The notes below the pieces were generated by a model, which had not been told where the DNA came from, searched no databases, and saw only the letters and a list, made by a program, of their open reading frames with translations. A program made the translations under genes and the position numbers. From a virus: DNA of 64,000 bases. The stretch covers positions 1-64,000 of the IMG/VR virus record IMGVR_UViG_3300031576_000012, one strand, 5' to 3'. Below, piece by piece: positions 2,913-61,994 of this stretch (positions are counted from its first letter, which is position 1; each line of letters starts with the position of its first letter).

Positions 2913-4510
2913 TTTCCATTAATTGAATTAATCATTTGTCGTGAACCATCGGAATACAACAAACAGGATGTATGGAACCAAGAAGAGGCTCCCACATTGT
3001 AATCTAATTTCAGTTTGCTGGTTGTACCAACTCTCCACACGCTTCTGAGAACTTCAGGTGTATGAGCATGTCCAATTACACATGGTCCATAAGCTTTCTC
3101 AAATGTTAGTAAGCTTCCACCTTTACTACCATTAGCTCCTTTATCCCCGTGAGACCCTAATTCTACCCCTGCAATTTTAAAGCTCTCATCTCTCTTTAAG
3201 AAGATAATTCTCCTAAACTCTTTAAGTTCCGCTACTTTCTTATTAGAAAGCTTTGGAAGATTAACCAAGGCATAAGCAAGAGGATCTTTCCTATCAATCA
3301 TAGGAGCTATCAATTGACTTGCGAATCTAAGATTAGATGGATCAGTAAGATACCTTCCATCTTGAAGATACCTATCTAACACTTCATCATGATTAGACTT
3401 TACAAAGATGAACTTTCCAGGAATCCAAGTGAGTAACTCACTAACCTCAGTGTTAACGATAGATAGTTCTTCTTCTAAGCCCATTCTTTTATCCTCAGAC
3501 AATTGAGCTTTTGTTACTGTCTTGTTCATGTCGTGGTGATTATTCCACTTACCATTAAATACATCATGCCCAACTAAATTCCTTACTCCTACTTCGCTAC
3601 AAACTTCTTTCCAGGCTTGTTTAGCAGAAAGTTCATGCTCTCCAGCATGGTAGTCCCCCATAATAAGGGCCTCTGCACCTAGCTTCTCTATCTTTCCATT
3701 TGGGGAGTAGTATTTACCTAAGTCAAAGAACCTTCCGGTATTAGGTTCTGCTTGTACTTGTCTGTAGAAGTATTTCCCTTCAGGATCTAGCTCAACAATT
3801 AAGGCACCCAACACATGGTCGAAATTAGCTAGATATGAAGTTCTCTTGCTCATATAAACATCTGTTTCATAATCAGCACTAGTAACCGCACCTGTTGTCA
3901 TAATAGGATGTGGCAACTTCTCATTTCCCGTAGGAATAAATTGAAGTCTTTGTTTAGGGGAAGCATAAATGAATGCTCCATCTTTCTGACTTAGCCTAGA
4001 AAGTCCTGTTGTAGGATCAATCTGTTTAGCTGATAGCTGAATCATACGAATATGAATGTTCTTATTTAAGGACAAATCATGCCCGATAATATGTTCATTC
4101 GCTAATGCTGGATCTAAAATCCAATCATCTCCTTGTCCTGGATTGGCGCAAGGAACTATAAGCAACGTAGATTTATTAGCCTTACAATAAACCTTTAAGG
4201 TTTTAAAAAACTTAGTATGAATAGGAGAATTAACTACTGCTGTGGTGATAACAAACCTATTAGACCCTTTAACAAGATCATTTATTTGTTTAAATTTCTG
4301 AGGGTCAAATAAAGAATCACTAATTACCCCCTTAAAACATTCAGGGTGTTCTTCCTTCATATAAGTTTTTAATTGACTGATAGAACCAAAATTATGTCGA
4401 ATAGCTGTCCTGCTAATTTGATACTCTAAGAACTCTCGTGTATTAGGAAGACGCTTATTCTTCTTTACAAAGTCCTTAAAAGCATTAATTATTTCTGGTT
4501 TTTTGTTCAT
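2897..4510 (-). CDS. T5 A1-like metallophosphoesterase/nuclease with N-terminal HTH-like domain
   Basis: FVITTAV, MTTGAVT, GDYH, GHD, SNHD, HGDKGANGSKG, GHAH calcineurin-like motifs; 537 aa. Confidence 0.75.
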   Translation of the reverse strand: MNKKPEIINAFKDFVKKNKRLPNTREFLEYQISRTAIRHNFGSISQLKTYMKEEHPECFKGVISDSLFDPQKFKQINDLVKGSNRFVITTAVVNSPIHTKFFKTLKVYCKANKSTLLIVPCANPGQGDDWILDPALANEHIIGHDLSLNKNIHIRMIQLSAKQIDPTTGLSRLSQKDGAFIYASPKQRLQFIPTGNEKLPHPIMTTGAVTSADYETDVYMSKRTSYLANFDHVLGALIVELDPEGKYFYRQVQAEPNTGRFFDLGKYYSPNGKIEKLGAEALIMGDYHAGEHELSAKQAWKEVCSEVGVRNLVGHDVFNGKWNNHHDMNKTVTKAQLSEDKRMGLEEELSIVNTEVSELLTWIPGKFIFVKSNHDEVLDRYLQDGRYLTDPSNLRFASQLIAPMIDRKDPLAYALVNLPKLSNKKVAELKEFRRIIFLKRDESFKIAGVELGSHGDKGANGSKGGSLLTFEKAYGPCVIGHAHTPEVLRSVWRVGTTSKLKLDYNVGASSWFHTSCLLYSDGSRQMINSINGKWRLK

Positions 4511-6726
4511 TCTTTAGTCTCCGATAATCGGTCTGCAATTATAGGTTCAGCCACCAAAGGAAGACTAAGCTTGTAGTTATTCTCCATGATATCTTTCATG
4601 ATAACTGCTACTTGTTCTGCTTGATCTTCTCTAGCTTCCACAACAATTTCATCGTGAATTTGAATCAACACGTAAGCATCCAAGTTTAATTCTTTGAACT
4701 TCCTTCTCATAGCTATCATTGCTCTACTTACAATACTAGCAGCCGTTCCTTGAATTTTAAAGTTAATACTTAAATTCAATAGCTTATTTACTAGTAGCTG
4801 ATCTGATCTTACCCTAGATTTGAGTAATTTGTCAATCCCTACAAAGCGTCTAACTCTTCCTGTCTCTGTTTTAACGTAACCAAGTTTCATGGCTTCCCCA
4901 TGACAACGGTTAACGAATTTATACAGATTAGGTAATCCTTTCCAGTACTTATCAATCTTTTCTTGGGCCTCATCAAGTTCGCACTGAAGGGTATGCCCTA
5001 GCTTCCACTTCTTCATGCCGTAGGCTACCCCAAGGGCAATAGCCTTAGCTTCTTGCCTGATGTCTCCTGCCCCGTCTGCCTTCATTGTATTGGGGTTTCC
5101 TTTGTAGTCCATACAAAGTACCGCAATAGTGCCATAGAAGTCATCTCCACGGTAATAGGCGTCTATTAGAGCCTTTTCCTGGCTGTAATGGGCAAATACC
5201 CTTGGCTCTAGCTGAGAGTAGTCAGGACCGATAAGCTTATACCCTGGTCTAGCAATAATCCCCTGTTTAATCCTCTTATCTTCTCGTGGAAGATTCTGGA
5301 AGTTAGGTTCCCTACAAGAAAATCTTCCTGAGTCTGTTCCATGCTGAAGCCATCGTGGGCGTACTATACCTTCTTTTTGAGAGGTAAGAATACCATCTAC
5401 ATAAGTACTTACTAACTTAATGATCTTTCGTCTTTGCGAGACTTTAGCAACAAAGCTATAACTTTTAGCAAAGTGATCTAAAACCTCATCATCTACTTGA
5501 GCATTGTTCTTATCTGTGACCTTCATAGGTGTTTCACCTAAGCGATTAAAGAGAAGGTCTTTAAGTTGATCATTGCTGCTTAAGTTAATAACATATTTAG
5601 ACTTTCCAAGTTCTAGATACATCTCTTGACGTGTTGTAAATAAAAGATCTGCGTATAGTTTTTCTAATTCTGTTTGTTGAATTAGCCCCATTTTCCATTG
5701 AAGTAATACATTCTCTGGGTGTGTTTTAAACTCAGCCTCTATAACCTTTTTAACAAAAGAAGTTTCTCCTTTTTTATCATAATAAAGAGTTAATCCTGAA
5801 TTTATATAAAGTTGTTCAAACAGCAATCCTCTACTTTTTAATGGATAAGCTTCTGTTAATAGTTCATTTTCTAAAGCTTCATAATGTTTTAAATAGTTTT
5901 TCTTAAGCTCTTCATGAGCTTCTTTTTCAAGTTGGTCTGCTTCCGCTGTAAGTGTCTTTTTAAGGTCTTCAAAATAAGGGATATCACACATTACCCCTCT
6001 TCCAATCATATGATCAATAACAACCTCATTAAGAGGCATTACCTCATCAGTATAAAAGAAATTAACTAGCCCTTGTATTTCAAGTTCGGTGTGCATTACT
6101 CCAAAAATCTTAGCGGTTAAATCTACGTCTGCACATGCATACTTCCCTAAAATATCTAAGTCTGCCATGTAAATGTCTTTGTGGTCTTTGTTCCATTTAC
6201 CACCATTATGTATTACGGAAGCTTTTAATTCTTCTTGTTCATCTTTGGCTTCCTCCCCAAAGATTAGAACAGCTATATCTTTTAGCCCATGCGGTCTACG
6301 TTCATCAAGTGTGTGTTTGAGAAGCATGGTATCTGCATAAAGATTCTTTAGGCAATCAGCTCCGATAGTTTGTTTAATAACTTGCACATCGAACGGGCTG
6401 TTATGCATAATTAGTTTAGCTTTGGAGTGTTCTAGTAACTCAATCAATCCTGTACGCAAAAGAAACGCTCTATGATCATCAATAGTATCTAGTCTTGTAT
6501 TAGTGATCTTATTTTGTTCATCCCTTTCAACAGTGTAATTGTGCATGGGGAAGTAAACGGCTTCTCCCTCTGCTGGACTAATAGAAATCCCCATAAGCTT
6601 ACAACTAAGAGTATCAAGAGAGTTAGTCTCGGTATCAACAGCTAAAAATCCAACATTTCTTTTTAAAATGTCTAGATAGTTAGTTTGATCTTCAAGGGTA
6701 TAAGCTATGTAATAGTTCTTAGTCAT
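4507..6726 (-). CDS. polA: DNA polymerase family A with 3'-5' exonuclease
   Basis: Exo motifs DTET, HNSPFD, YACAD; pol motifs SGRFS..PNFQN, DYSQLEPR, RQEAKAIALGVAYG, IHDE. Confidence 0.97.
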   Translation of the reverse strand: MTKNYYIAYTLEDQTNYLDILKRNVGFLAVDTETNSLDTLSCKLMGISISPAEGEAVYFPMHNYTVERDEQNKITNTRLDTIDDHRAFLLRTGLIELLEHSKAKLIMHNSPFDVQVIKQTIGADCLKNLYADTMLLKHTLDERRPHGLKDIAVLIFGEEAKDEQEELKASVIHNGGKWNKDHKDIYMADLDILGKYACADVDLTAKIFGVMHTELEIQGLVNFFYTDEVMPLNEVVIDHMIGRGVMCDIPYFEDLKKTLTAEADQLEKEAHEELKKNYLKHYEALENELLTEAYPLKSRGLLFEQLYINSGLTLYYDKKGETSFVKKVIEAEFKTHPENVLLQWKMGLIQQTELEKLYADLLFTTRQEMYLELGKSKYVINLSSNDQLKDLLFNRLGETPMKVTDKNNAQVDDEVLDHFAKSYSFVAKVSQRRKIIKLVSTYVDGILTSQKEGIVRPRWLQHGTDSGRFSCREPNFQNLPREDKRIKQGIIARPGYKLIGPDYSQLEPRVFAHYSQEKALIDAYYRGDDFYGTIAVLCMDYKGNPNTMKADGAGDIRQEAKAIALGVAYGMKKWKLGHTLQCELDEAQEKIDKYWKGLPNLYKFVNRCHGEAMKLGYVKTETGRVRRFVGIDKLLKSRVRSDQLLVNKLLNLSINFKIQGTAASIVSRAMIAMRRKFKELNLDAYVLIQIHDEIVVEAREDQAEQVAVIMKDIMENNYKLSLPLVAEPIIADRLSETKE

Positions 6727-8731
6727 CTTTATGTTCTAACTGTTTCCTTAGTCCCGCCAATTCCATTTGTTCTTCTTGTACTAAATCTCTTACAATACCA
6801 GAGGCTCCATGAAAGAACAAATCAATTGTTCCTGTATCCCCCATACGATTTTTAAACATCTTTATGCCCATGATATAATCATAGTCTGGATGAGAGTCTT
6901 TAAAAGGACGGAAACAATTTACTTGAGTGGAAGCTTTTTCTTCCCAAGCTCCTGAGCCTTTGGCTAATATCATTTCATCATTAACATTGTTTCTACTGGT
7001 TTGTGATAGCCCTAGAATACAAATATTCTTATTCTTAGATAGTTCTGCTAAAGAGTGAGCATTGAAAGTATCATTAGCAAAACCTAAATAGTCAGATTTA
7101 ATTAGCTGGACATAATCAATAATTACTAACTTGACCTTCCTACCCCACATGTTTTCTTGTCGGTCAATTTCCGCACCAATGTCTTTTACGGTCATATGAG
7201 TTTGAGAACTGATAAGCACGTTCTCTGAGACCTTTTCAAATGCTTCTAAAGACTTACTCATAAGCCCTTCATCATTTCGTGCATGGCCTTCCATGAACTG
7301 CTTACCACTAATGATCTGCTCTTTAATATCTTCAGCTAGAAGAATGGGGGCACATCTTTGGATAAGCATCTCTTGGCTCATATCCATATTAAAAAACAAT
7401 GCAGGGATATTCCCTTTGCTTGCATTATTCATGATGTTGAGCATAAAACTAGTTTTACCAGTACCAGGCTTACCCACAATTAAATTAAATGTACCTAAGT
7501 AAAGAGGCATCCTCTCATCAATAGTAGTAAACCCCGTCTGTACAACATTGGAGTGATAACCTTTATACCAAGACTTAGAACGCTTGTAAGCATCTAGTAG
7601 GGTAATAACGTCGGCCTTTGATTCTTCAAATTTCTTGGGTGCTAAATGACATTTCCTGCTGCATACAGCATCAAGTACAAAGTCATTACAACCATAATCA
7701 TAGTCGTTCTTAAATACTTGTGAAACAATGGTGTCGATCTCTGGCTCAAGAATTGGGTCCATTTGAGCCTTCTTAGGGTCTCTAGCATTCATTAAGTCTA
7801 ACACACCAAGAAGTTTAGCTTTAACTACTGCTTGTGGCATACCAGTCTTACGCTCATGGTCAGCAATCCTCAATAGAGCATTGTTTCTACCTTCAACGTA
7901 GTCACCTTGGCATAACCTCCAAATACATGTCTTAAACATTCTTGGGGCATTACGGTCATCTGTTAGCCCTTCAGAAGTTATAGAAGGAAGACTAATAAGT
8001 TTTCGGCTTACTGTTTCAACTTCCACCATAGACTTACTAAGTAGGTCTGATAGCTTAGATGCATCCGATAATATGTCAAATAGATGAGGTATTCGTATTT
8101 GTACAGCAAAGCGTTTAATTTCATCAATCGTTGAATTTCTCAACATAGGGACTGATAGACTAGTTTTAAACAGTCTGACTGGACGACCATCAACATCTGA
8201 TTCTTTATCATGTAAAGTACCGGCTATTCTGTATAACCTAATATGGTTGTATATTCCTTTGTCAACCGTTTTTAGATCACCAGCAATTGCTAAACAGATC
8301 TTCTTTACATATAAAGGAGTGTTTTCACTTAAGGCTCCATCTAAGCCAACTATACCCTTAGTTCGTATTTCAACCGCAAAACCTTTTCTACCACTAAAGA
8401 ACACACCAATTTCATTCTCTTTTACACTATAATCAGCAATAAGCCTATCAATTAGTGTAACAGCATCTTGTCGTGATAATTCAAGTTCTACGTTATCGAA
8501 ATCCCATACAAGGTATTCAACTCCAGACTTGCCTTTAAATCCTTTTACTGATCCAGTTTCAGTTACATGCTTAAGCATTTCCTCTGTGTAGTGGAAAAGC
8601 CCTCGGTAACTATCTTTATAAGGATCAATATTTTCATACAGCTTGTCGAGAAGAACTACCTTATTTCTAAGGGAACTAGATCTCAATTCCTCACGGAATT
8701 CGATATACAAACTCATAGAACCTCGGTTCAA
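6719..8731 (-). CDS. primase-helicase fusion (AEP primase, Cys-rich domain, DnaB-like SF4 helicase)
   Basis: WDFD, FSGRKGF, RLYRIAG primase motifs; GKPGTGKT, IIDYVQ, LSQ, KNRMG helicase motifs. Confidence 0.88.
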   Translation of the reverse strand: MNRGSMSLYIEFREELRSSSLRNKVVLLDKLYENIDPYKDSYRGLFHYTEEMLKHVTETGSVKGFKGKSGVEYLVWDFDNVELELSRQDAVTLIDRLIADYSVKENEIGVFFSGRKGFAVEIRTKGIVGLDGALSENTPLYVKKICLAIAGDLKTVDKGIYNHIRLYRIAGTLHDKESDVDGRPVRLFKTSLSVPMLRNSTIDEIKRFAVQIRIPHLFDILSDASKLSDLLSKSMVEVETVSRKLISLPSITSEGLTDDRNAPRMFKTCIWRLCQGDYVEGRNNALLRIADHERKTGMPQAVVKAKLLGVLDLMNARDPKKAQMDPILEPEIDTIVSQVFKNDYDYGCNDFVLDAVCSRKCHLAPKKFEESKADVITLLDAYKRSKSWYKGYHSNVVQTGFTTIDERMPLYLGTFNLIVGKPGTGKTSFMLNIMNNASKGNIPALFFNMDMSQEMLIQRCAPILLAEDIKEQIISGKQFMEGHARNDEGLMSKSLEAFEKVSENVLISSQTHMTVKDIGAEIDRQENMWGRKVKLVIIDYVQLIKSDYLGFANDTFNAHSLAELSKNKNICILGLSQTSRNNVNDEMILAKGSGAWEEKASTQVNCFRPFKDSHPDYDYIMGIKMFKNRMGDTGTIDLFFHGASGIVRDLVQEEQMELAGLRKQLEHKDD

Positions 8732-21393: not shown

Positions 21394-21621
21394 TCACTCA
21401 ATGTAAGCTATTATACACCCTTTATTGTTGTTGTCAAATGTCCAAGATATCTCATACTCTTGTAAGGTATCTATTACTTCGGATCTAATTTTACCATGTC
21501 CTGTTATCAATGTCAACTTATGTGATTTTCTGGTCTTAAGTACCTGAAATAATAGAGAATCCATATGAGCTGAAGCCTGTTCTAATCGTAACCCGTGGAA
21601 ATCCTTCTCTATTTTAATCAT
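21394..21621 (-). CDS. stand-alone Smr-domain protein
   Basis: DFHGL..EQA, LITGHG, NKG motifs. Confidence 0.85.
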   Translation of the reverse strand: MIKIEKDFHGLRLEQASAHMDSLLFQVLKTRKSHKLTLITGHGKIRSEVIDTLQEYEISWTFDNNNKGCIIAYIE

Positions 21622-37050: not shown

Positions 37051-37078
37051 ATTATACCAAAGGATAAGCTAATGTCAA
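37051..37078 (-). promoter_or_regulatory. sigma70-type promoter
   Basis: TTGACA-N16-TATAAT in an intergenic gap, followed by GGAGGG SD. Confidence 0.7.
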
Positions 37079-42765: not shown

Positions 42766-42916
42766 TTACTCATACAATTGTAATCTCTTTTATTTGTATA
42801 CATACTTCTTATTGTATTAATATATTGCATATAAATTAATTATAATCTACATAAATATTGTATTAACATAATTGTATCTTGTAAGAATACAATTGTAATT
42901 ATAATATATATTATAA
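42766..42916. other. very AT-rich repeat region, candidate replication origin
   Basis: 13-bp direct repeat ATACAATTGTAAT (42772, 42887), further ATTGTA units, 18-bp palindrome TTATAATATATATTATAA (42899-42916). Confidence 0.5.
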
Positions 42917-42938
42917 CCTTTATCTCAGCCATTGTCAA
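42910..42938 (-). promoter_or_regulatory. consensus sigma70 promoter
   Basis: TTGACA-N17-TATAAT. Confidence 0.8.
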
Positions 42939-48752: not shown

Positions 48753-49384
48753 CATTTAATTTCAGCAATCCTTCAAAGGAATGCTAAACCTATCTATCGC
48801 ATATAAAGGGTTAATAGGCTATGATAGAGCATAGATAAATCGTTGATATTACAAGGAAATATGCATATTATTGATATTGTTAGTTATTATTAGCAGTAAC
48901 CGGATTTCCCCAACATGCTACATAGCACTATATACTATGGCAATAAACCTACCTATTATCCCTATTGCTCAATATTGCCCATTCCTATATATACCCTAAC
49001 CCCCTATGTAGTACATTCTTATATGCAAGCTTAGTGCCAATTGTATTAGCGGCGCTAACATACATGACCATACATCAAAGGTTTGTTCCCTCTGCAACAT
49101 ACATGCCAAGGTACAAAGATATTGCTTGACATATAATCCTATTCCTGGTATAATATATGCATGTGTTATGTATATAAGCATAATTCATTGCACCCTATAT
49201 ATGTATTATTACATATTGATAATTGAATGTCAATATATAAATTGATTAATGATTTCAATATGATATGGGTATGGCATAGGGTATGCATACATGATAAGGG
49301 GTACGGTTATATGCACATTGTATGCCATAGGCCACTGGTACCCCAAATGATAACAACAATTTTAGCAAAGGAACAATCATTCCT

Positions 49385-51511
49385 ATGAGTTTAATGGATG
49401 AATTACAAGATCATATTCATAACTGGATGAATTCACACGGAAAAGAGCCTCCTTGTATTAATGTGACTCTCTCTGAGTATAAAATAATAGAGAAGGAATT
49501 ACTCAGTAACGCTAATACCCTCTATATGCCATTACAGGGGGGAGCTAAACTACTGAGTTTTGATGGAGTTCATATTAACATAGCACAAGAATCTGATCTT
49601 GGGGAGTCAATAGATGAGGAACAAGAGCAAGTCTGGTATGCTCAAGAGTATGACCAAGAGTAGTATAAAGGTAGTACTTAATAAAAAGATTGACAAAGCT
49701 ATTACCGATATGTTACAATACGTTATAGATAGGGTAGACTTAGAGAAGGCAGAACTAGCTGAAGAAGAACAGGATAGACTTGAGAGAGAATATGGAAGAA
49801 CCAAGAATAAAGACTGAAGAGCACAGTTTTATGCATCAAGGGGACTGTATAGGACATACTCATAAGTTTACAATTAAGATTAGTACGGTTCCAAATGTAA
49901 CTCCTGGGCAGCTTGTAGAAGTATTCAGGGATGACGTAAAGATTATGAACTATATGATATTAAACGATCAGTGTCCAAGGGTGATCTCTACATACTTTAA
50001 AGAAGAAGAGGGAACCCAGGATGAGTATAATATAAAATATTCAAAAGAAGAGGAATAAACATTCCTATGTCAGATCCTAAAGATATATTGGCTGAAATTA
50101 TGGACCAGGATGAATATAAGCCTAAACGAGAGAACGCTGTGATCAAGATCCAAATACAGGATAAGTATGGTCAGGTTTACGGCGTTACTGAAACGCTCGT
50201 GGGCGCGGTTGCGGATTATGACCCCCGCGATGTCTCTGAAAGAGTGGAGGAGAAGCTCCTTGTCCTCCTTCAGGAGATCTTATACGGAACACGAGATCCA
50301 GACGAGGATAAAGAAGAGCGGGAGGTAGACAATGAGCAAACCATCAAAGATTACGAGCAAAAAGAATAAGGTCTCTTTTCCTAATGGAAGTATGGTGGTT
50401 ATGGATGAGCATCAGTTGGATGCTTTGACCTACCTTACAGCTGAACTTAAGAACTCCAATCAGTTTGTTTATGGTACATTCTTAGATATCTGGAACGAAT
50501 TATATGAGAAAGAGGCTGAAAACGAAAGCCTTATAAGGGAATATGAGCAGAAATCGAGCTAACCGACTGATATCATGGATAATTTCGGTGGTCGCGGCGG
50601 TTTTACTCTACCTTTACGTGAAAACCCAGGTCAAATAGGCGTGAGATGAGAAAAAAACGGAAAAAAACGGAAAAACAGAAACCGCTGGGTCCGGTACCAA
50701 AGACCCCTAAAGAACTTTTTGAGATACACATGGACAAAATCGAGCCAGGACTGGCAAAAGCAGTAGGAAAGTATGCGGATTTCATTAATCCCTTCTTAAA
50801 GATGCCTAAGCTTACTCCTGATAGACAATTAATCAATAAAGAAGAAGAGAATGAACGATTAATCGAGGAATATCAACAAGTTAACAAGAAAGAGGAGTCT
50901 TAAATGGAATATACACAATCTAAATTGGTTTTAGAGCTTCTATCCAAAGCGTTAGAGTTCTATGCCAAGGACGAGAACTATGAAACGGTACCAACAGATG
51001 ATGACACAGATAGCTTTGCGTTACTCCCTAGTGAAGTAGAACGTGATCGTGGTCGGGTAGCGAAGGAAACATTACACAATATCAGGGAGATTATGGGAAA
51101 AGAAGAGAAACATGGATAGGATAGAACAATTTGTCAATGAGTATGTAGGATTTATGTCTATAAACGACACAGATGCCGCAGGACAAGCGGAACTACTAAA
51201 GGAGATGGTCAAGGATCTCCTTGTAGAAGATCGTCTCAGGACGCTCAATATAATCGAAATTAAAGGTATTCCCTTAGACAGTCAGACCAAGAATACAATC
51301 TTGGGGGAGGAAATCAATGCCTTTTAAGGTTTATACATCAGATGAGGCTAAACTGGAAGCCAAGTTGAATGAAATCCAGGAATCAGGGGAGAATGTGGTT
51401 CAAGTTGTACTTATGGTATGGCAAGATGCAGAATCCGCTTATTTTAAAATTATATCGTTATCAATGGCTCCTTGGAAGCCTAAACAGGAACCAGAAAGTC
51501 AAAAACAATGA
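49385..51511 (+). other. cluster of small acidic proteins (49385-49663, 49614-49817, 49780-50058, 50067-50369, 50332-50562, 50646-50903, 50904-51119, 51112-51327, 51317-51511)
   Basis: Overlap-coupled plus-strand ORFs; several share a C-terminal motif. Confidence 0.7.
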
Positions 51512-51831
51512 AAAAGCTAATAATATCCACGTTTTGCATGTTGTCTATGTTTGGCTGTGCTGATAAGTTTGATCTGTCAGAATATAGCAATAATCAGATT
51601 ACAGAGGCTCGTGAGAAGTGTGCTTTTGGAACAATGAAGGTTTTAAATGAAAAGTCTCCATTAGAGATTGAAAAGATCATTTGTAGCCTAAAGAGCAGAA
51701 AAGATCACTGTAAGATCACTCCAGAGGAAGTTCAGGAGTTTACCTTAAGAGTATTCAATTCTTGTGTAGAAGGGGTGCTTAAGAGTCAAAAACCTGAGTT
51801 TGAACCTAAAAAGGGCCAGTTTCCGGTATAA
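51508..51831 (+). CDS. putative lipoprotein
   Basis: MKKLIISTFCMLSMFG-C lipobox. Confidence 0.65.
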   Translation: MKKLIISTFCMLSMFGCADKFDLSEYSNNQITEAREKCAFGTMKVLNEKSPLEIEKIICSLKSRKDHCKITPEEVQEFTLRVFNSCVEGVLKSQKPEFEPKKGQFPV

Positions 51832-52202
51832 GTGAAAATAGTTGAGGAATGATTGTTCCCTTTTGTTAGAAAAAGGGTGAATATTAGGATAACTGTATAG
51901 AAGTCTGTTTATTGGTCTGGGCTTATGATTAACTCCTTAGAAACTTTACGTTTTTGAGGATGTTACGTTTTTGAGTTATATCATGAATGAAAGATTAAAC
52001 CGCCCAGATTTAATTAAGCTTACTTTATTGTTAGAATATTACGATGAAATCCTTATTAATCACGCCCAGGCCAAAATAGTGATTCTTTCGGAACATCGGA
52101 ACATTCTACAGGAACGAAGCCGTATTTTGTCTCTCTTGCGGGATAAAAGAAAAAAGGCATTATTGTTGAGTAGATAATCTTATTCTAGTGAGGTAATCAA
52201 CC

Positions 52203-52709
52203 GTGATGAGCGAAAAGCCATTCAAACAGAAGTTTAAAGAACTAATGGATGACGCTTCTAAACTCGTTAAGGAAGCTACCCCAAAAGAAATAGAAGAGAT
52301 TAAGGTTAATCTATTTAATACAACTATTCTCCCTTCCTCAGACCTGGTTTGCAAAACCGACGAGGAATTTGATTTACGAGTACTTTATCGTATTACAGGA
52401 GTCATTGGTGAATTGCCTTACATTCTTATACATCATGATGAACTTACAGACGCGCAAATCGAAAAGCATCGACAAAAAGCTCTCTCTGAGCACAAAAAGT
52501 TCATCTTACCCTCTATTGTCGAACCAATCTCAAATCACCCTGATCGCCAATTTACCCCTTATCTCGTATTTCCAACACACGACAAATTACTTTTTCTATT
52601 GCCTCTCGAAGGCTCGGCTTTTTCTGATATCGAATTTGAAGATCCACAATCTGAATCTGATGAGGATTTAGAAGACGATTTCGACTTTCCATCTGAGGAT
52701 GAAGAATAG
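52203..52709 (+). CDS. hypothetical protein with acidic tail
   Basis: 168 aa; ends EDPQSESDEDLEDDFDFPSEDEE. Confidence 0.7.
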   Translation: MMSEKPFKQKFKELMDDASKLVKEATPKEIEEIKVNLFNTTILPSSDLVCKTDEEFDLRVLYRITGVIGELPYILIHHDELTDAQIEKHRQKALSEHKKFILPSIVEPISNHPDRQFTPYLVFPTHDKLLFLLPLEGSAFSDIEFEDPQSESDEDLEDDFDFPSEDEE

Positions 52710-52723
52710 CTGGTGAAGGAAAC

Positions 52724-52887
52724 GAGTATGGTGAAAACTATACTCATGCAATTCCTCCCAACTATCCCTTTAAAAAAGGATAGTACTTCCTCCTCATCTG
52801 TTGGGCTAGGTGGCTTCGGCTGCCTAGTCCTTCAGAATTTATGTTCTTAAAGGCATAAACACAGTTTATGTTTTAAAAGACATAGAT
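52724..52887 (+). ncRNA. multi-hairpin intergenic element (ncRNA, terminator or operators)
   Basis: Five consecutive inverted repeats, including GAAA- and TTCG-capped stems. Confidence 0.5.
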
Positions 52888-54144: not shown

Positions 54145-55620
54145 ATGTCACAATACGGCGAACCGCTTAAAATCCATGAATTGCATGTTGAAGAACTAGT
54201 AGAGGAATTCTCGAAACGAGGCATTACTACCACTTCTTCAAAGATTGGTAAGCTACATCCAGCACAAATTCAAATCGTTCATGACGTAGGAAGATTCAAA
54301 GTATTAGCCTGTGGAAGACGTTTTGGTAAATCTTTGTTCTGTACGGCTGTAGCAGCTGCAGTTGCTATGCAGCCAGGAAGAAAGATCTGGATTGTTTCTG
54401 ATAACTATGGTCTAACAGATAGAGTATTTGCAGAACTTTATCATCTTTTTGTTAATGAATTGAAATTAGCTGACTCTTCTAAAGGTGGAGCATCTTCTAA
54501 ATTAAACAGATACATCAGATTACCTAATGGCAGTGTCATTGAAGGTAAATCTTGTGAAAACCGCAAATCTCTCGTAGGTGAATCTATTGATTTACTTATT
54601 TGGGATGAGTGCGCTTTAACTGTTGGAGGGGAAGATATCTGGAATCAGGAGCTTCGTCCTACTTTAATTGATAGAGAAGGTTCAGCTATCTTCATTTCTA
54701 CTCCCCGTGGGAGAAACCATTTGTATAAGTTTTATATGAATGGGTTAGAAGGTATAGCTGCCAGAGAGAAACAGGCTCAAGGCTTACCTCTTACTGAAGA
54801 TGAAACTATAAAATCAGAATGGTCAGGATTTAAATTTAGTTCTTATTGCAATACCACCAATCAAGGTGGCTATTTGAAGAAATCAGAAATTGATTCAATG
54901 AGACTATCAATGCCTGATGTTAAGTTTAGGCAAGAAGTTATGGCTGATTTTACAGCTGTAGCTGATTCTGTGTTCCCTGAATTTGCACAAGAGACTCAAG
55001 TTGTTGATTGGGACTTCAATCCAGCATGGCCAGTTTATGTGGCAATGGATTTTAACTACCAAACACCTTGTACTTCTTTGTATCTTCAAATTGATCCTAA
55101 CAATAATATCTTAGTAATTGATGAATATCATCCTAAAGACGCACATAAAACCGTGCATCAACAGGCTAAACAGCTTTTAGAGATGGATCAAAGGTATAAT
55201 AAGAGAATTGAACTTATTGTAGCAGATATAGCTGGAAAACAGAAAGATCTAAATGGAAGAAGTGCATGGGATGATCTAGCTGATTGGAATATATACCCAG
55301 TTGGCAGAAAGCAAAAAATAGAAACAGGTTGTGATTTAATTCGTTTATGGTGTTCATACCCTAAAGTAGACCAAAATAATCAACCTGTGTTTGATAAAGA
55401 AGAAAAACATATCGTATATCCTAAACTCTTTGTAAATAATAGATGTAAAAATTTAATATTTGCCTTAGAAGCTGCTCGTGCTCCAGAGGGGCAAGGTGGG
55501 GTTTCTAAAGAAGGATATAGAAAAGATGGTATAACAGACGGTCCATTAGATGCACTTCGGTATATTCTAGTGTACCTCTTACATGATTCCAATTTAGTTG
55601 GAACATTACCAGTAGTTTAA
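54145..55620 (+). CDS. terL: terminase large subunit
   Basis: LHPAQ, CGRRFGKS, LLIWDE, ISTPRG, AMDFNY, DGPLDALRY. Confidence 0.95.
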   Translation: MSQYGEPLKIHELHVEELVEEFSKRGITTTSSKIGKLHPAQIQIVHDVGRFKVLACGRRFGKSLFCTAVAAAVAMQPGRKIWIVSDNYGLTDRVFAELYHLFVNELKLADSSKGGASSKLNRYIRLPNGSVIEGKSCENRKSLVGESIDLLIWDECALTVGGEDIWNQELRPTLIDREGSAIFISTPRGRNHLYKFYMNGLEGIAAREKQAQGLPLTEDETIKSEWSGFKFSSYCNTTNQGGYLKKSEIDSMRLSMPDVKFRQEVMADFTAVADSVFPEFAQETQVVDWDFNPAWPVYVAMDFNYQTPCTSLYLQIDPNNNILVIDEYHPKDAHKTVHQQAKQLLEMDQRYNKRIELIVADIAGKQKDLNGRSAWDDLADWNIYPVGRKQKIETGCDLIRLWCSYPKVDQNNQPVFDKEEKHIVYPKLFVNNRCKNLIFALEAARAPEGQGGVSKEGYRKDGITDGPLDALRYILVYLLHDSNLVGTLPVV

Positions 55621-60626: not shown

Positions 60627-61994
60627 ATGGCACAAGTCATTTCATTAGCTGATGCAGCTAAATTATCTAATAATCTCTTGGTTGAAGGTGTAATTGAAGA
60701 TATTATCACTATTAATGAGTGGTACCGTTTTCTACCTTTCGTTGTATTTGAAGGACTTTCCTATACATTTACACGAGAGGCTCAAATCGCTAAGTCTGCT
60801 TTCGCAGCTCCTGGTGCTAACCTCAACCAATTGAAATATCAGAAGGGTGCAACCGTTTCAAACGTAAACGTTCACCTAGCTGCTATCATTGGCGACATTA
60901 TCATGGACGGACAGATCGAAGACCAACTATCTGATCACAACGATCAGCTACAGGTCCAGATCAGTTCAAAGTCTAAGGATATTGCTCGTACTTACATGAA
61001 CTCAATCATCAATGGCCGTAGAATCCCTGGTGGTCCACTTGTTCAATCGAACAACGGTCCTATCGGAATCGAAGCCAAATTCGACGGTATGAAAGCTATT
61101 CTAGATGCAGAATCTGGAAACAGCGATGACGTTAACCATCCTTTCTATAATGCTGGTGCTTCAACACAAACACTAGACCTTACAGAGGATGACAGCGCAT
61201 CACCCCGTTTGAATCGTCCAGGCCGCGTATTTACACTAGAAGATCTAGACAACTTGATCGACCGTGTAACTACAGGTAAACCTGACTTCTTGATGATGCA
61301 CTCAAGAGACATCCGTACACTAAGAGTATTACTACGTAATACTGGTGGTGGAACAGATGCATATCAAATTCAGCAAGTTGGTCTCGGAAATATGAAGCCT
61401 ATGCTTATGTATCAAGAGATCCCTGTATTCCGAAACGATTTTATTTCTCGTTTCGAACCAGTTAACTTGGTGGATTCAGGCGCAGTTGCCGCAGTAGGCG
61501 CTGCCTCAATCACAACCGCTGAAGACTATTCTCTAGGCGTACCCGCAGCTCTTGCTGATGGTATTGCTGCAGGAACAGCAGCCGCAGTTGTACGTGGTGA
61601 TGATGGAATTCTTCGGAAATACAAAATCACTGTCGCAACAGCAGCTAACCCTTCAGTACTCACAGTAGTCGCAACTGGAACATTCCTTGATGTTGAAAAC
61701 AACAACAATGAACTCCAACTTGCACCAAACGATGTATCCCTCGGACTCGTAGGCAAAACCTATGAACTCTATGAGAGAGCAGACGGTTCGGAAGTCTATT
61801 GTGGACGTTGGGGTGAGATGGAAGGCGTTTGCGGATTTACTTCTGCTAATGACGCCGGTGTTGTATTCGAATTCGTTGGTCCTCGTGAGAACGAGAACGC
61901 CAATCAGTACCGCCTCAAGTGGTATTGTGGGTTCGATCTCTACAACCGCCTCTCGCTTGCTAGAATGCGTAGAGTTCTACCTCTCGGAGCATAA
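60627..61994 (+). CDS. major capsid protein (HK97 fold) with insertion domain
   Basis: ISLADAAKL, GVIEDI, LPF..FEGLSYTFTRE, FDGM, LEDLDNLID, YRLKWYCG; strong codon bias; terminator follows. Confidence 0.92.
   Translation: MAQVISLADAAKLSNNLLVEGVIEDIITINEWYRFLPFVVFEGLSYTFTREAQIAKSAFAAPGANLNQLKYQKGATVSNVNVHLAAIIGDIIMDGQIEDQLSDHNDQLQVQISSKSKDIARTYMNSIINGRRIPGGPLVQSNNGPIGIEAKFDGMKAILDAESGNSDDVNHPFYNAGASTQTLDLTEDDSASPRLNRPGRVFTLEDLDNLIDRVTTGKPDFLMMHSRDIRTLRVLLRNTGGGTDAYQIQQVGLGNMKPMLMYQEIPVFRNDFISRFEPVNLVDSGAVAAVGAASITTAEDYSLGVPAALADGIAAGTAAAVVRGDDGILRKYKITVATAANPSVLTVVATGTFLDVENNNNELQLAPNDVSLGLVGKTYELYERADGSEVYCGRWGEMEGVCGFTSANDAGVVFEFVGPRENENANQYRLKWYCGFDLYNRLSLARMRRVLPLGA

Follow-up and report, generated by a model that had tools for sequence, protein, structure and literature searches.

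A lineage-specific family of small phage proteins with a common acidic C-terminal module in a probable early accessory cassette

Introduction

Acidic C-terminal tails serve as interaction hubs in Escherichia coli SSB, T7 gp2.5 and T4 gp32, where partners recognise a key aromatic or hydrophobic residue. Tails of the SSB type are disordered, carry the aromatic residue at their very end and can fold back on the basic surface of their own protein. A different use of a short terminal peptide is found in the T-even phages, whose internal proteins (IPI, IPII, IPIII and Alt) are diverse small proteins with a short targeting peptide alone in common (PMC3012670). The targeting sequence of T4 (CTS) is N-terminal, is about 10 aa long, acts in prohead assembly and is removed by the head maturation protease (PMC7697877). 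Targeting peptides are also known from Family 1 encapsulins, where they are C-terminal and dock diverse cargo on an HK97-fold shell; their consensus is rich in G, S and L (SDGSLGIGSLKRS), and the cargo genes share an operon with the gene of the shell (PMC8346489). Small phage genes are also found grouped in early regions, as in the host takeover module of SPO1, with 26 small, mostly uncharacterised genes that the host RNA polymerase reads when infection begins and that show fast turnover (PMC6873191).

In the present study, we analysed a locus of an IMG/VR phage genome in which a first-pass annotation had noticed an array of small proteins ending in almost the same acidic peptide. The proteins had been described as unrelated cargo, and the peptide had been likened to the T4 CTS as a possible address to the procapsid. 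Here, we report on the reality, extent and distribution of this common ending, on the transcription signals and gene junctions around it, and on how the locus compares with the systems described above.

Results

Genome context of the small-gene cassette

The IMG/VR record IMGVR_UViG_3300031576_000012 comprises 94,996 bp and is estimated to be 83% complete, and the window, by which we mean the whole stretch of DNA that was analysed, is its first 64 kb (64,000 nucleotides). The G+C content is about 36%. Minus-strand genes occupy positions 105-48717 and plus-strand genes positions 49385-94854, and between the two strand blocks lies a divergent, gene-poor region of 670 bp. The plus arm, which carries the array, is AT-rich and purine-skewed; the gene of the large terminase lies there at 54145-55620 (phrog_2), and that of a major head protein of the HK97 type at 60627-61994 (phrog_212). 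Pfam and PHROGs revealed no prohead protease in the ORFs of the head module, and an Rfam search of the window returned two tRNAs only, both far from the array. The ribosome-binding sites of the phage are of the canonical GGAG type.

The array is part of a cassette of ten small ORFs (A to J, 64-107 aa) that spans 49385-51831. The ORFs and the endings described earlier are present in the sequence exactly as stated. ORF A (49385-49663, plus strand, 92 aa) and ORF C (49780-50058, plus strand, 92 aa) are cassette neighbours; the acidic tail of A is not significantly related to the motif, and C lacks the motif. Between them lies ORF B (49614-49817, plus strand), with 67 aa, or 55 aa if translation starts at 49650, and within it is the tail EQDRLEREYGR, which makes B a marginal fourth tail carrier. 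The members of the family proper are three adjacent, co-oriented ORFs of similar size (76-100 aa). ORF D (50067-50369, plus strand, 100 aa, pI 4.3) has its tail motif, DNEQTIKDYEQ, at 50328-50360 of the plus strand, followed by KE. ORF E (50332-50562, plus strand, 76 aa, pI 5.0) has the motif ENESLIREYEQ at 50518-50550 of the plus strand, followed by KSS. ORF F (50646-50903, plus strand, 85 aa, pI 9.5) joins a basic N-terminus to an acidic tail; its motif, ENERLIEEYQQ, lies at 50847-50879 of the plus strand and is followed by VNKKEES, and no downstream gene overlaps it.

Coding-frame margins were positive in all ten ORFs A to J, with 0.12-0.26 per codon compared with 0.26 +/- 0.12 for control small ORFs. 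Good canonical Shine-Dalgarno (SD) sequences precede B, E, G and I, and the start of B at 49614 has the SD GGGGAG 7 nt before it. ORF J carries a lipoprotein-like signal peptide, an observation that fits an accessory cassette. A 24-nt repeat precedes both A and D. A block duplication relating A-B-C to D-E-F, at which this repeat hints, was considered and rejected, given that neither the bodies of A and D nor those of B and E are similar.

Promoter and terminator signals of the cassette

A perfect sigma70-type promoter sequence (TTGACA-17-TATAAT) with a TG extension is located at 49126-49154 of the plus strand, about 230 nt before ORF A. Perfect TTGACA-N16-18-TATAAT sites occur five times in the genome against 0.07 expected; four of them face the minus-strand gene block, and on the plus strand the site at 49126-49154 stands alone. 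When up to one mismatch is allowed, the plus strand from position 49000 on contains a single further site, at 49690 within ORF B. At the other end of the cassette, a strong hairpin followed by a T-rich stretch (about 51930-51975, plus strand) constitutes a probable intrinsic terminator that would close the unit A to J. This hairpin has a folding energy of -15.2 kcal/mol (z -3.6), none of 200 shuffles folded as well, and the terminator-like site itself lies at 51934-51960. Small AGGAA-N6-TTCCT hairpins before A, before D and after J were no stabler than shuffles.

The consensus promoter on the plus strand and the terminator hairpin together suggest that the cassette 49385-51831 is a separate transcription unit, and it looks like one that is read by the host RNA polymerase. 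It is probably of the early type, as judged from consensus sequences only.

Reality and membership of the common tail

For all 168 ORFs called in the genome, the C-terminal 25 residues were compared pairwise by their best ungapped 11-mer BLOSUM62 score. Four of the six best among about 14,000 pairs came from the array, namely E-F (score 42), D-E (40), B-F (35) and D-F (34), and the other two were pairs of tail-fibre-like paralogs outside the window. When the six array tails (A to F) were shuffled 200 times, which preserves their E/K-rich composition, the top pair had a mean score of 28.3 and a maximum of 38, and the fourth-best pair did not exceed 30. The per-pair probabilities obtained from 1000 shuffles were at most 0.001 for E-F and for D-E and 0.007 for D-F. 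For ORF B they were 0.003 with F, 0.028 with E and 0.26 with D, and all pairs involving A or C gave p > 0.24.

Additionally, the tails of D, E, F and the D ortholog P0004 were combined in an HMM, which was run against a stop-to-stop six-frame translation of the whole 95-kb genome. This tail HMM matched D, E and F only; the next match, at E = 0.086, lay in a non-coding frame, and B received 0.3 bits. Both the shuffles and the tail HMM thus confirmed the common tail in the neighbouring ORFs D, E and F, and the motif is significant in these three against the E/K-rich tail background. The D/E/F consensus is [DE]-N-E-x-[LT]-I-x-[DE]-Y-[EQ]-Q, placed 2-7 residues from the C-terminus. Degenerate copies of the tail had also been claimed for A and B. 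The claim holds marginally for B, with its p of 0.003 against F and 0.3 bits in the HMM, and does not hold for A (p > 0.24). On the shuffle p values and the HMM result, D, E and F are confirmed members of the family, B is a marginal fourth and A is a non-member.

Extent and fold of the module

The similarity reaches beyond the 11-residue motif. BLASTP aligned D and E over 32 aa (E 4e-5), back to a common [IF][LV]YGT. With hhalign, the D family matched E over 30 columns (E 4.7e-5) and F over 23 columns (E 1e-3), and gave no match to B. The last 25 residues of the module contain 8-12 D/E. Once the last 22 residues were removed, Smith-Waterman comparison of the bodies gave no signal (D-E p 0.45, E-F p 0.62, D-F p 0.58).

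AlphaFold2 (AF2) models of D and E, built from single sequences and of moderate or low confidence, place the tail in a helix. In the model of E (pLDDT 72), a beta-hairpin at residues 11-25 and a helix at 26-40 are followed by a long C-terminal helix at 44-75 that contains the motif. The model of D (pLDDT 61) has a short helix, a beta-hairpin at 23-45, a helix at 53-73, a linker and a tail helix at 85-99, with a pLDDT of about 50 in the tail itself. The order of elements is thus alike in the two models, with a beta-hairpin, a helix and a tail helix. The common part is a module of 23-30 residues in a predicted C-terminal helix, and not a free 11-mer.

The bodies had been called dissimilar, and by sequence they are (Smith-Waterman p 0.45-0.62); against this, D and E are similar over 30-32 residues and have the same predicted order of elements. 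The description of these proteins as unrelated cargo finds no support, given the length of the module and the fact that D and E look like diverged paralogs. A ribbon-helix-helix fold for E, prompted by its strand-helix-helix order and by the residues SLIRE, was rejected, with no Pfam RHH match at E <= 0.1 and a different register. Co-folding of D, F and E returned a score of 0.00 in a run without controls, which is no evidence either way.

Codon usage and gene junctions

Among the 15 aligned codons of E and F, 10 of the 15 residues are common, six of them through different codons, and 28 of the 45 nucleotides are identical. Between D and E, again over 15 aligned codons, eight of the 15 residues are common and five of these use different codons. 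Conservation therefore acts at the level of the protein, as had been supposed from the codons, which differ at six of ten common residues in E-F and five of eight in D-E. The same divergence rules out that a DNA repeat of recent date or gene conversion is the source, and it argues against conservation of an element at the RNA level.

Some of the motif codons also belong to gene junctions. At the D/E junction, the AAT-GAG of the D motif contains the ATG of E, and the codons before it (CGG-GAG-GTA) contain the SD of E, GGGAGG. Similarly, in A, B and E a TAT-G within the E-Y-x codons supplies the ORF that follows with an in-frame ATG. The picture differs at other places: the N-E codons of E (AAC-GAA) contain no ATG, the ORF that starts in the tail of E is 31 aa long, hydrophobic and has a negative coding score, the ATG in the motif of F opens an ORF of three codons, and the SD of G is placed after the motif of F, in the KKEES codons. 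No relic tail was seen upstream of F that could have been the source of its basic N-terminus.

Relatives and distribution of the family

Searches of ORFs A to J against Pfam-A and PHROGs gave nothing below E 0.003 and nothing above a curated cut-off. A word-based search with E in a collection of 5.8 billion proteins returned E itself only. When 1.84 billion representatives were searched exhaustively by HMMER with an E/D/F/B profile, the matches were the proteins of the phage itself, P0004 and two repeat proteins, P0003 and P0006, which we regard as spurious. P0004, the sole known ortholog of D, is a protein of 91 aa encoded on a JGI metagenome contig of 1381 bp and is 47% identical to D. Its C-terminus, EKEIENEANIKEYEKKED, contains E-N-E-A-N-I-K-E-Y-E-K three residues from the end, and the tail is thus retained in the only ortholog found (n=1).

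A profile of D and P0004 found no further relatives, scans of IMG/VR with E, F and P0004 returned nothing, and the D family had no match in the scans of metagenomes and of GTDB genomes. There was no DNA match to 48800-52800 in a phage GenBank collection. The structural searches were likewise negative, with nothing at E <= 0.001 when the model of E was compared by Foldseek with PDB and BFVD, and with no usable lead for D in the ESM Atlas. The external evidence for the family consists of one relative on a 1.4-kb contig, and the evolutionary case is thin. In IMG/VR, a degenerate DNA pattern of the motif had 36 matches, nearly all internal to large unrelated proteins, and no other locus with more than one ORF bearing the motif near its end was found. 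This outcome indicates a motif that is private to the small D/E/F family and not a general phage tag.

The closest complete phage, of 117,406 bp and with terminal repeats, shares the whole head module, with 63% identity in TerL and 73% in a portal-like protein. It gave no match to the family profile. Synteny with this phage starts at 52203, and nothing is conserved to the left of that position. The array region thus appears as a hypervariable left edge of the structural arm that is missing in the nearest complete relative. Together, the promoter, the terminator and the hypervariable region would fit an early accessory cassette, and not procapsid cargo.

Discussion

Taken together, these results suggest that D, E and F, and doubtfully also B, form a small lineage-specific accessory family in a cassette that would be driven by the host RNA polymerase and is probably early. 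The members would have one homologous C-terminal module of about 25-30 residues, in which an acidic run precedes an amphipathic helix that is short (N-E-x-[L/T]-I-x-[D/E]-Y-[E/Q]-Q). The residues L/T, I and Y of this motif form a small hydrophobic patch and are spaced as on one face of a helix. We favour the view that D, E and F are tandem paralogs in which the C-terminal module alone is still recognisable. The common order of elements in the models of D and E, together with the adjacency, the orientation and the similar size of the three genes, makes local tandem duplication the simplest origin, and fast divergence would then have erased the similarity of the bodies and spared the module, which is maintained by selection on the protein. 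Shuffling of the module onto unrelated bodies is possible, since sequence comparison gives no proof of homology between the bodies of D, E and F, and the AF2 folds cover D and E. The module itself most likely acts as a helix by which every member contacts one common partner, either a host or a phage protein, and the divergent N-terminal bodies might supply different activities or specificities. The chances that this explanation is correct in all its parts, from the accessory family and the early cassette to a common contact helix for one partner, seem to us evenly balanced. Within it, we rate the reality of the module and its accessory-cassette context higher, and the common partner lower.

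Other functions of the tail have to be weighed against this explanation. The reading in which a portable address tag docks unrelated cargo on the procapsid interior, the scaffold or the portal, for packing and injection, appears improbable. It would account for a short C-terminal module that is conserved at the protein level in small proteins whose bodies have no sequence similarity, the phage does have a major head protein of the HK97 type (phrog_212), and encapsulins provide a precedent for C-terminal peptides that target cargo to HK97-fold shells (PMC8346489). The earlier reading as a T4-like CTS for the procapsid is nonetheless left unsupported by the location of the genes, which appear to form a unit of their own, with a consensus promoter of the host type at its head and a terminator at its end, about 10 kb upstream of the gene for the major capsid protein. 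Moreover, the motif is unlike the encapsulin consensus and is C-terminal, as opposed to the N-terminal and cleaved CTS of T4 (PMC7697877), the family is missing in the closest relative although the whole head module is common to both phages, and the tail HMM found no other ORF of the 95-kb genome, structural or otherwise, that bears the tail. There is also little to recommend the tail as a C-terminal degron or adaptor handle, through which a host protease would clear the early proteins on schedule or be hijacked. That C-terminal peptides common to several proteins are read by one proteolytic machine is a known principle, and early phage proteins that engage Clp machines exist, such as SPO1 Gp53 with ClpC (PMC6873191). 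Probable early expression would also suit a degron, but 2-7 variable polar residues separate the motif from the C-terminus, and an acidic tail that is predicted to be helical is not known from terminal degrons.

A role within the proteins themselves, either as a self-association element that joins D, E and F in helix bundles or as an autoinhibitory segment that would bend back onto the basic N-terminus in B, E and F, is unlikely, even if parts of the data agree with it. The motif lies in a predicted helix and its N-x-x-[L/T]-x-x-x-Y spacing fits two heptads; the resulting hydrophobic stripe is short, however, at about two heptads, and it is weak in D. As for the fold-back, B, E and F do pair a K/R-rich N-terminus with an acidic tail, but the basic N-termini of B and E are an out-of-frame reading of the acidic tail of the preceding gene, and they may therefore be free riders. 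The overlaps between genes suggest a further reading, in which conservation of the tail codons is a by-product, because the next, overlapping gene draws its ribosome-binding site and start codon from them. The D/E junction, where the D motif and the codons before it hold the ATG and the SD of E, and the in-frame ATGs that TAT-G gives after A, B and E are in its favour. The double use is inconsistent across the junctions of E, F and G, and the five to six identical residues per pair that are encoded by different codons are the opposite of what a constraint on the RNA would leave; junction constraints therefore cannot explain the conservation. The by-product reading is largely refuted and very improbable, and a junction constraint co-exists with the conservation of the tail at one junction, D/E. 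It is barely credible, finally, that the likeness is a chance product of E/K-rich tails or that the ORFs are non-genes. Many ORF tails in this AT-rich, purine-skewed arm are acidic, and the ORFs are short and without known relatives; against this, the best and fourth-best pairs in the composition-matched shuffles stayed below those observed (at most 38 against 42, and at most 30 against 34), the motif is kept in P0004, the coding margins are positive and SDs are present.

Returning to the accessory family with a common contact helix, a common docking function of the tail is possible, and the motif has no link to any known interaction motif. A more specific proposal, which we put forward as a doubtful one, is that the module is a portable handle, such that one reader protein would grip D, E, F and perhaps B by the acidic L/I/Y helix and in this way group different effectors. 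If so, the array would be a small example of a broader and undescribed practice, in which the early regions of phages mark groups of small proteins by one C-terminal peptide. The 25-residue peptide could then serve as bait for a hub where the early proteins of the phage converge, and a hub found in this way would provide a first function for a gene block without known relatives. The case is small, with three genes and one outside ortholog, from an uncultured phage. Its value is mainly that of an example of small, probably early phage proteins that retain only a C-terminal module while the remainder diverges. Overall, the family is new and tiny, and it is of a kind that is already familiar, that of small tandem genes that evolve fast within an accessory region of a phage.

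The comparison with described systems leads to the same picture. Like the T-even internal proteins, the array consists of otherwise diverse small phage proteins of which a short conserved peptide is the sole common part. The D/E/F module differs from the CTS in being C-terminal, about 25 aa long, acidic and predicted to be helical, with no sequence likeness to it, and the N-termini of D, E and F, where a CTS would be placed, are dissimilar; the genes also lie behind a host-type promoter and distant from the head genes. The likeness to encapsulin targeting peptides is that of a short C-terminal peptide. In place of their G/S/L-rich consensus, D, E and F have [DE]NEx[LT]Ix[DE]Y[EQ]Q, which is acidic, and, in contrast to encapsulin cargo genes, which lie within a few kb of the shell gene and in the same operon, the array ends at 50903, about 10 kb from the head gene at 60627-61994, with the terminator-like hairpin at about 51930-51965 in between. 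With the SSB-type tails, D, E and F have in common an acidic C-terminal segment with an aromatic or hydrophobic residue, but their segment is predicted to be helical, its Y lies 4-11 residues from the end, and no OB fold was detected.

The array comes closest to the SPO1 host takeover module, with which it has in common a cluster of small, mostly uncharacterised genes and the context of a host-type promoter. As would be expected of an accessory or host-takeover cassette, the small ORFs are clustered behind a strong promoter of the host type and are absent from the nearest relative. The D/E/F array has no homology to the SPO1 genes, and we know of no C-terminal module common to the proteins of the SPO1 module. 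Altogether, an early accessory or host-takeover cassette, such as the module of SPO1, would be the best functional analogue of the array.

Promoters and repeated elements of the cassette

Perfect sigma70-type promoters (TTGACA-N16-18-TATAAT) occur at five sites in the phage genome, against 0.07 expected by chance, and in most of them TG or G precedes the -10 hexamer. Four lie on the minus strand (87-115, 21410-21437, 37051-37078, and 42910-42938), while the fifth, on the plus strand at 49126-49154, stands ahead of ORF A, the first of the ten small plus-strand ORFs (A to J) of the cassette. Judged from sequence, these five sites would provide a clean map of the phage units driven by the host RNA polymerase. 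In the predicted 5' leader, which runs from the 49126 promoter to ORF A, a 20-nt inverted repeat with arms 80% complementary and a 20-nt spacer is present on the plus strand at 49270-49329; this repeat may be a leader structure.

Besides, a 24-nt element (AG-A-AGGAA-N6-CATTCCT-ATG) is found directly 5' of the start codons of ORFs A and D (49364-49387 and 50046-50069), the two copies being 83% identical, and immediately 3' of ORF J, at 51845-51862, there is an inverted copy of 18 nt (94% complementary); the element therefore brackets the cassette. It could serve as an operator in translation or as a processing site, or mark a boundary of the cassette, and its small AGGAA/TTCCT hairpins were no more stable than those of shuffled sequences.

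Small ORFs and C-terminal tails

The gap between ORFs E and F is occupied by a plus-strand ORF of 31 aa (50543-50638) that has a hydrophobic, transmembrane-like core and whose ATG falls within the TAT-GAG (Y-E) codons of the tail of E. Considering its negative codon-model score, this ORF may not be a gene. The last ORF of the cassette, J (51508-51831, plus strand, 107 aa), begins with a lipoprotein-like signal (MKKLIISTFCMLSMFGC...) and, on this sequence feature, may encode a phage lipoprotein, for example for superinfection exclusion.

ORF L (52203-52709, plus strand, 168 aa, pI 4.5), the first gene with a conserved counterpart (29% identity) in L003, a relative phage of 117 kb, has a very acidic C-terminus, in which 15 of the last 25 residues are D or E and D-F-D-F is present; this end is not related to the tail motif common to ORFs D, E, and F. 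The genome-wide comparison of C-terminal tails was headed, with 11-mer scores of 42 and 55, by large tail-fibre-like ORFs outside the window that form two pairs of neighbours (85905-89318/89321-91006 and 91010-92602/92616-92927 of the whole genome, G000:C1). Both members of each pair have their C-terminal 25 residues in common, and they are probably fibre paralogs or have a common C-terminal assembly domain.

Comparison with a relative phage

In L003, about 4 kb (approximately 4500-8600) upstream of the packaging genes, at the place that the small-gene cassette occupies in the window phage, is almost devoid of ORFs longer than 75 aa on both strands. This stretch may harbor non-coding RNA, tRNAs or very small genes.
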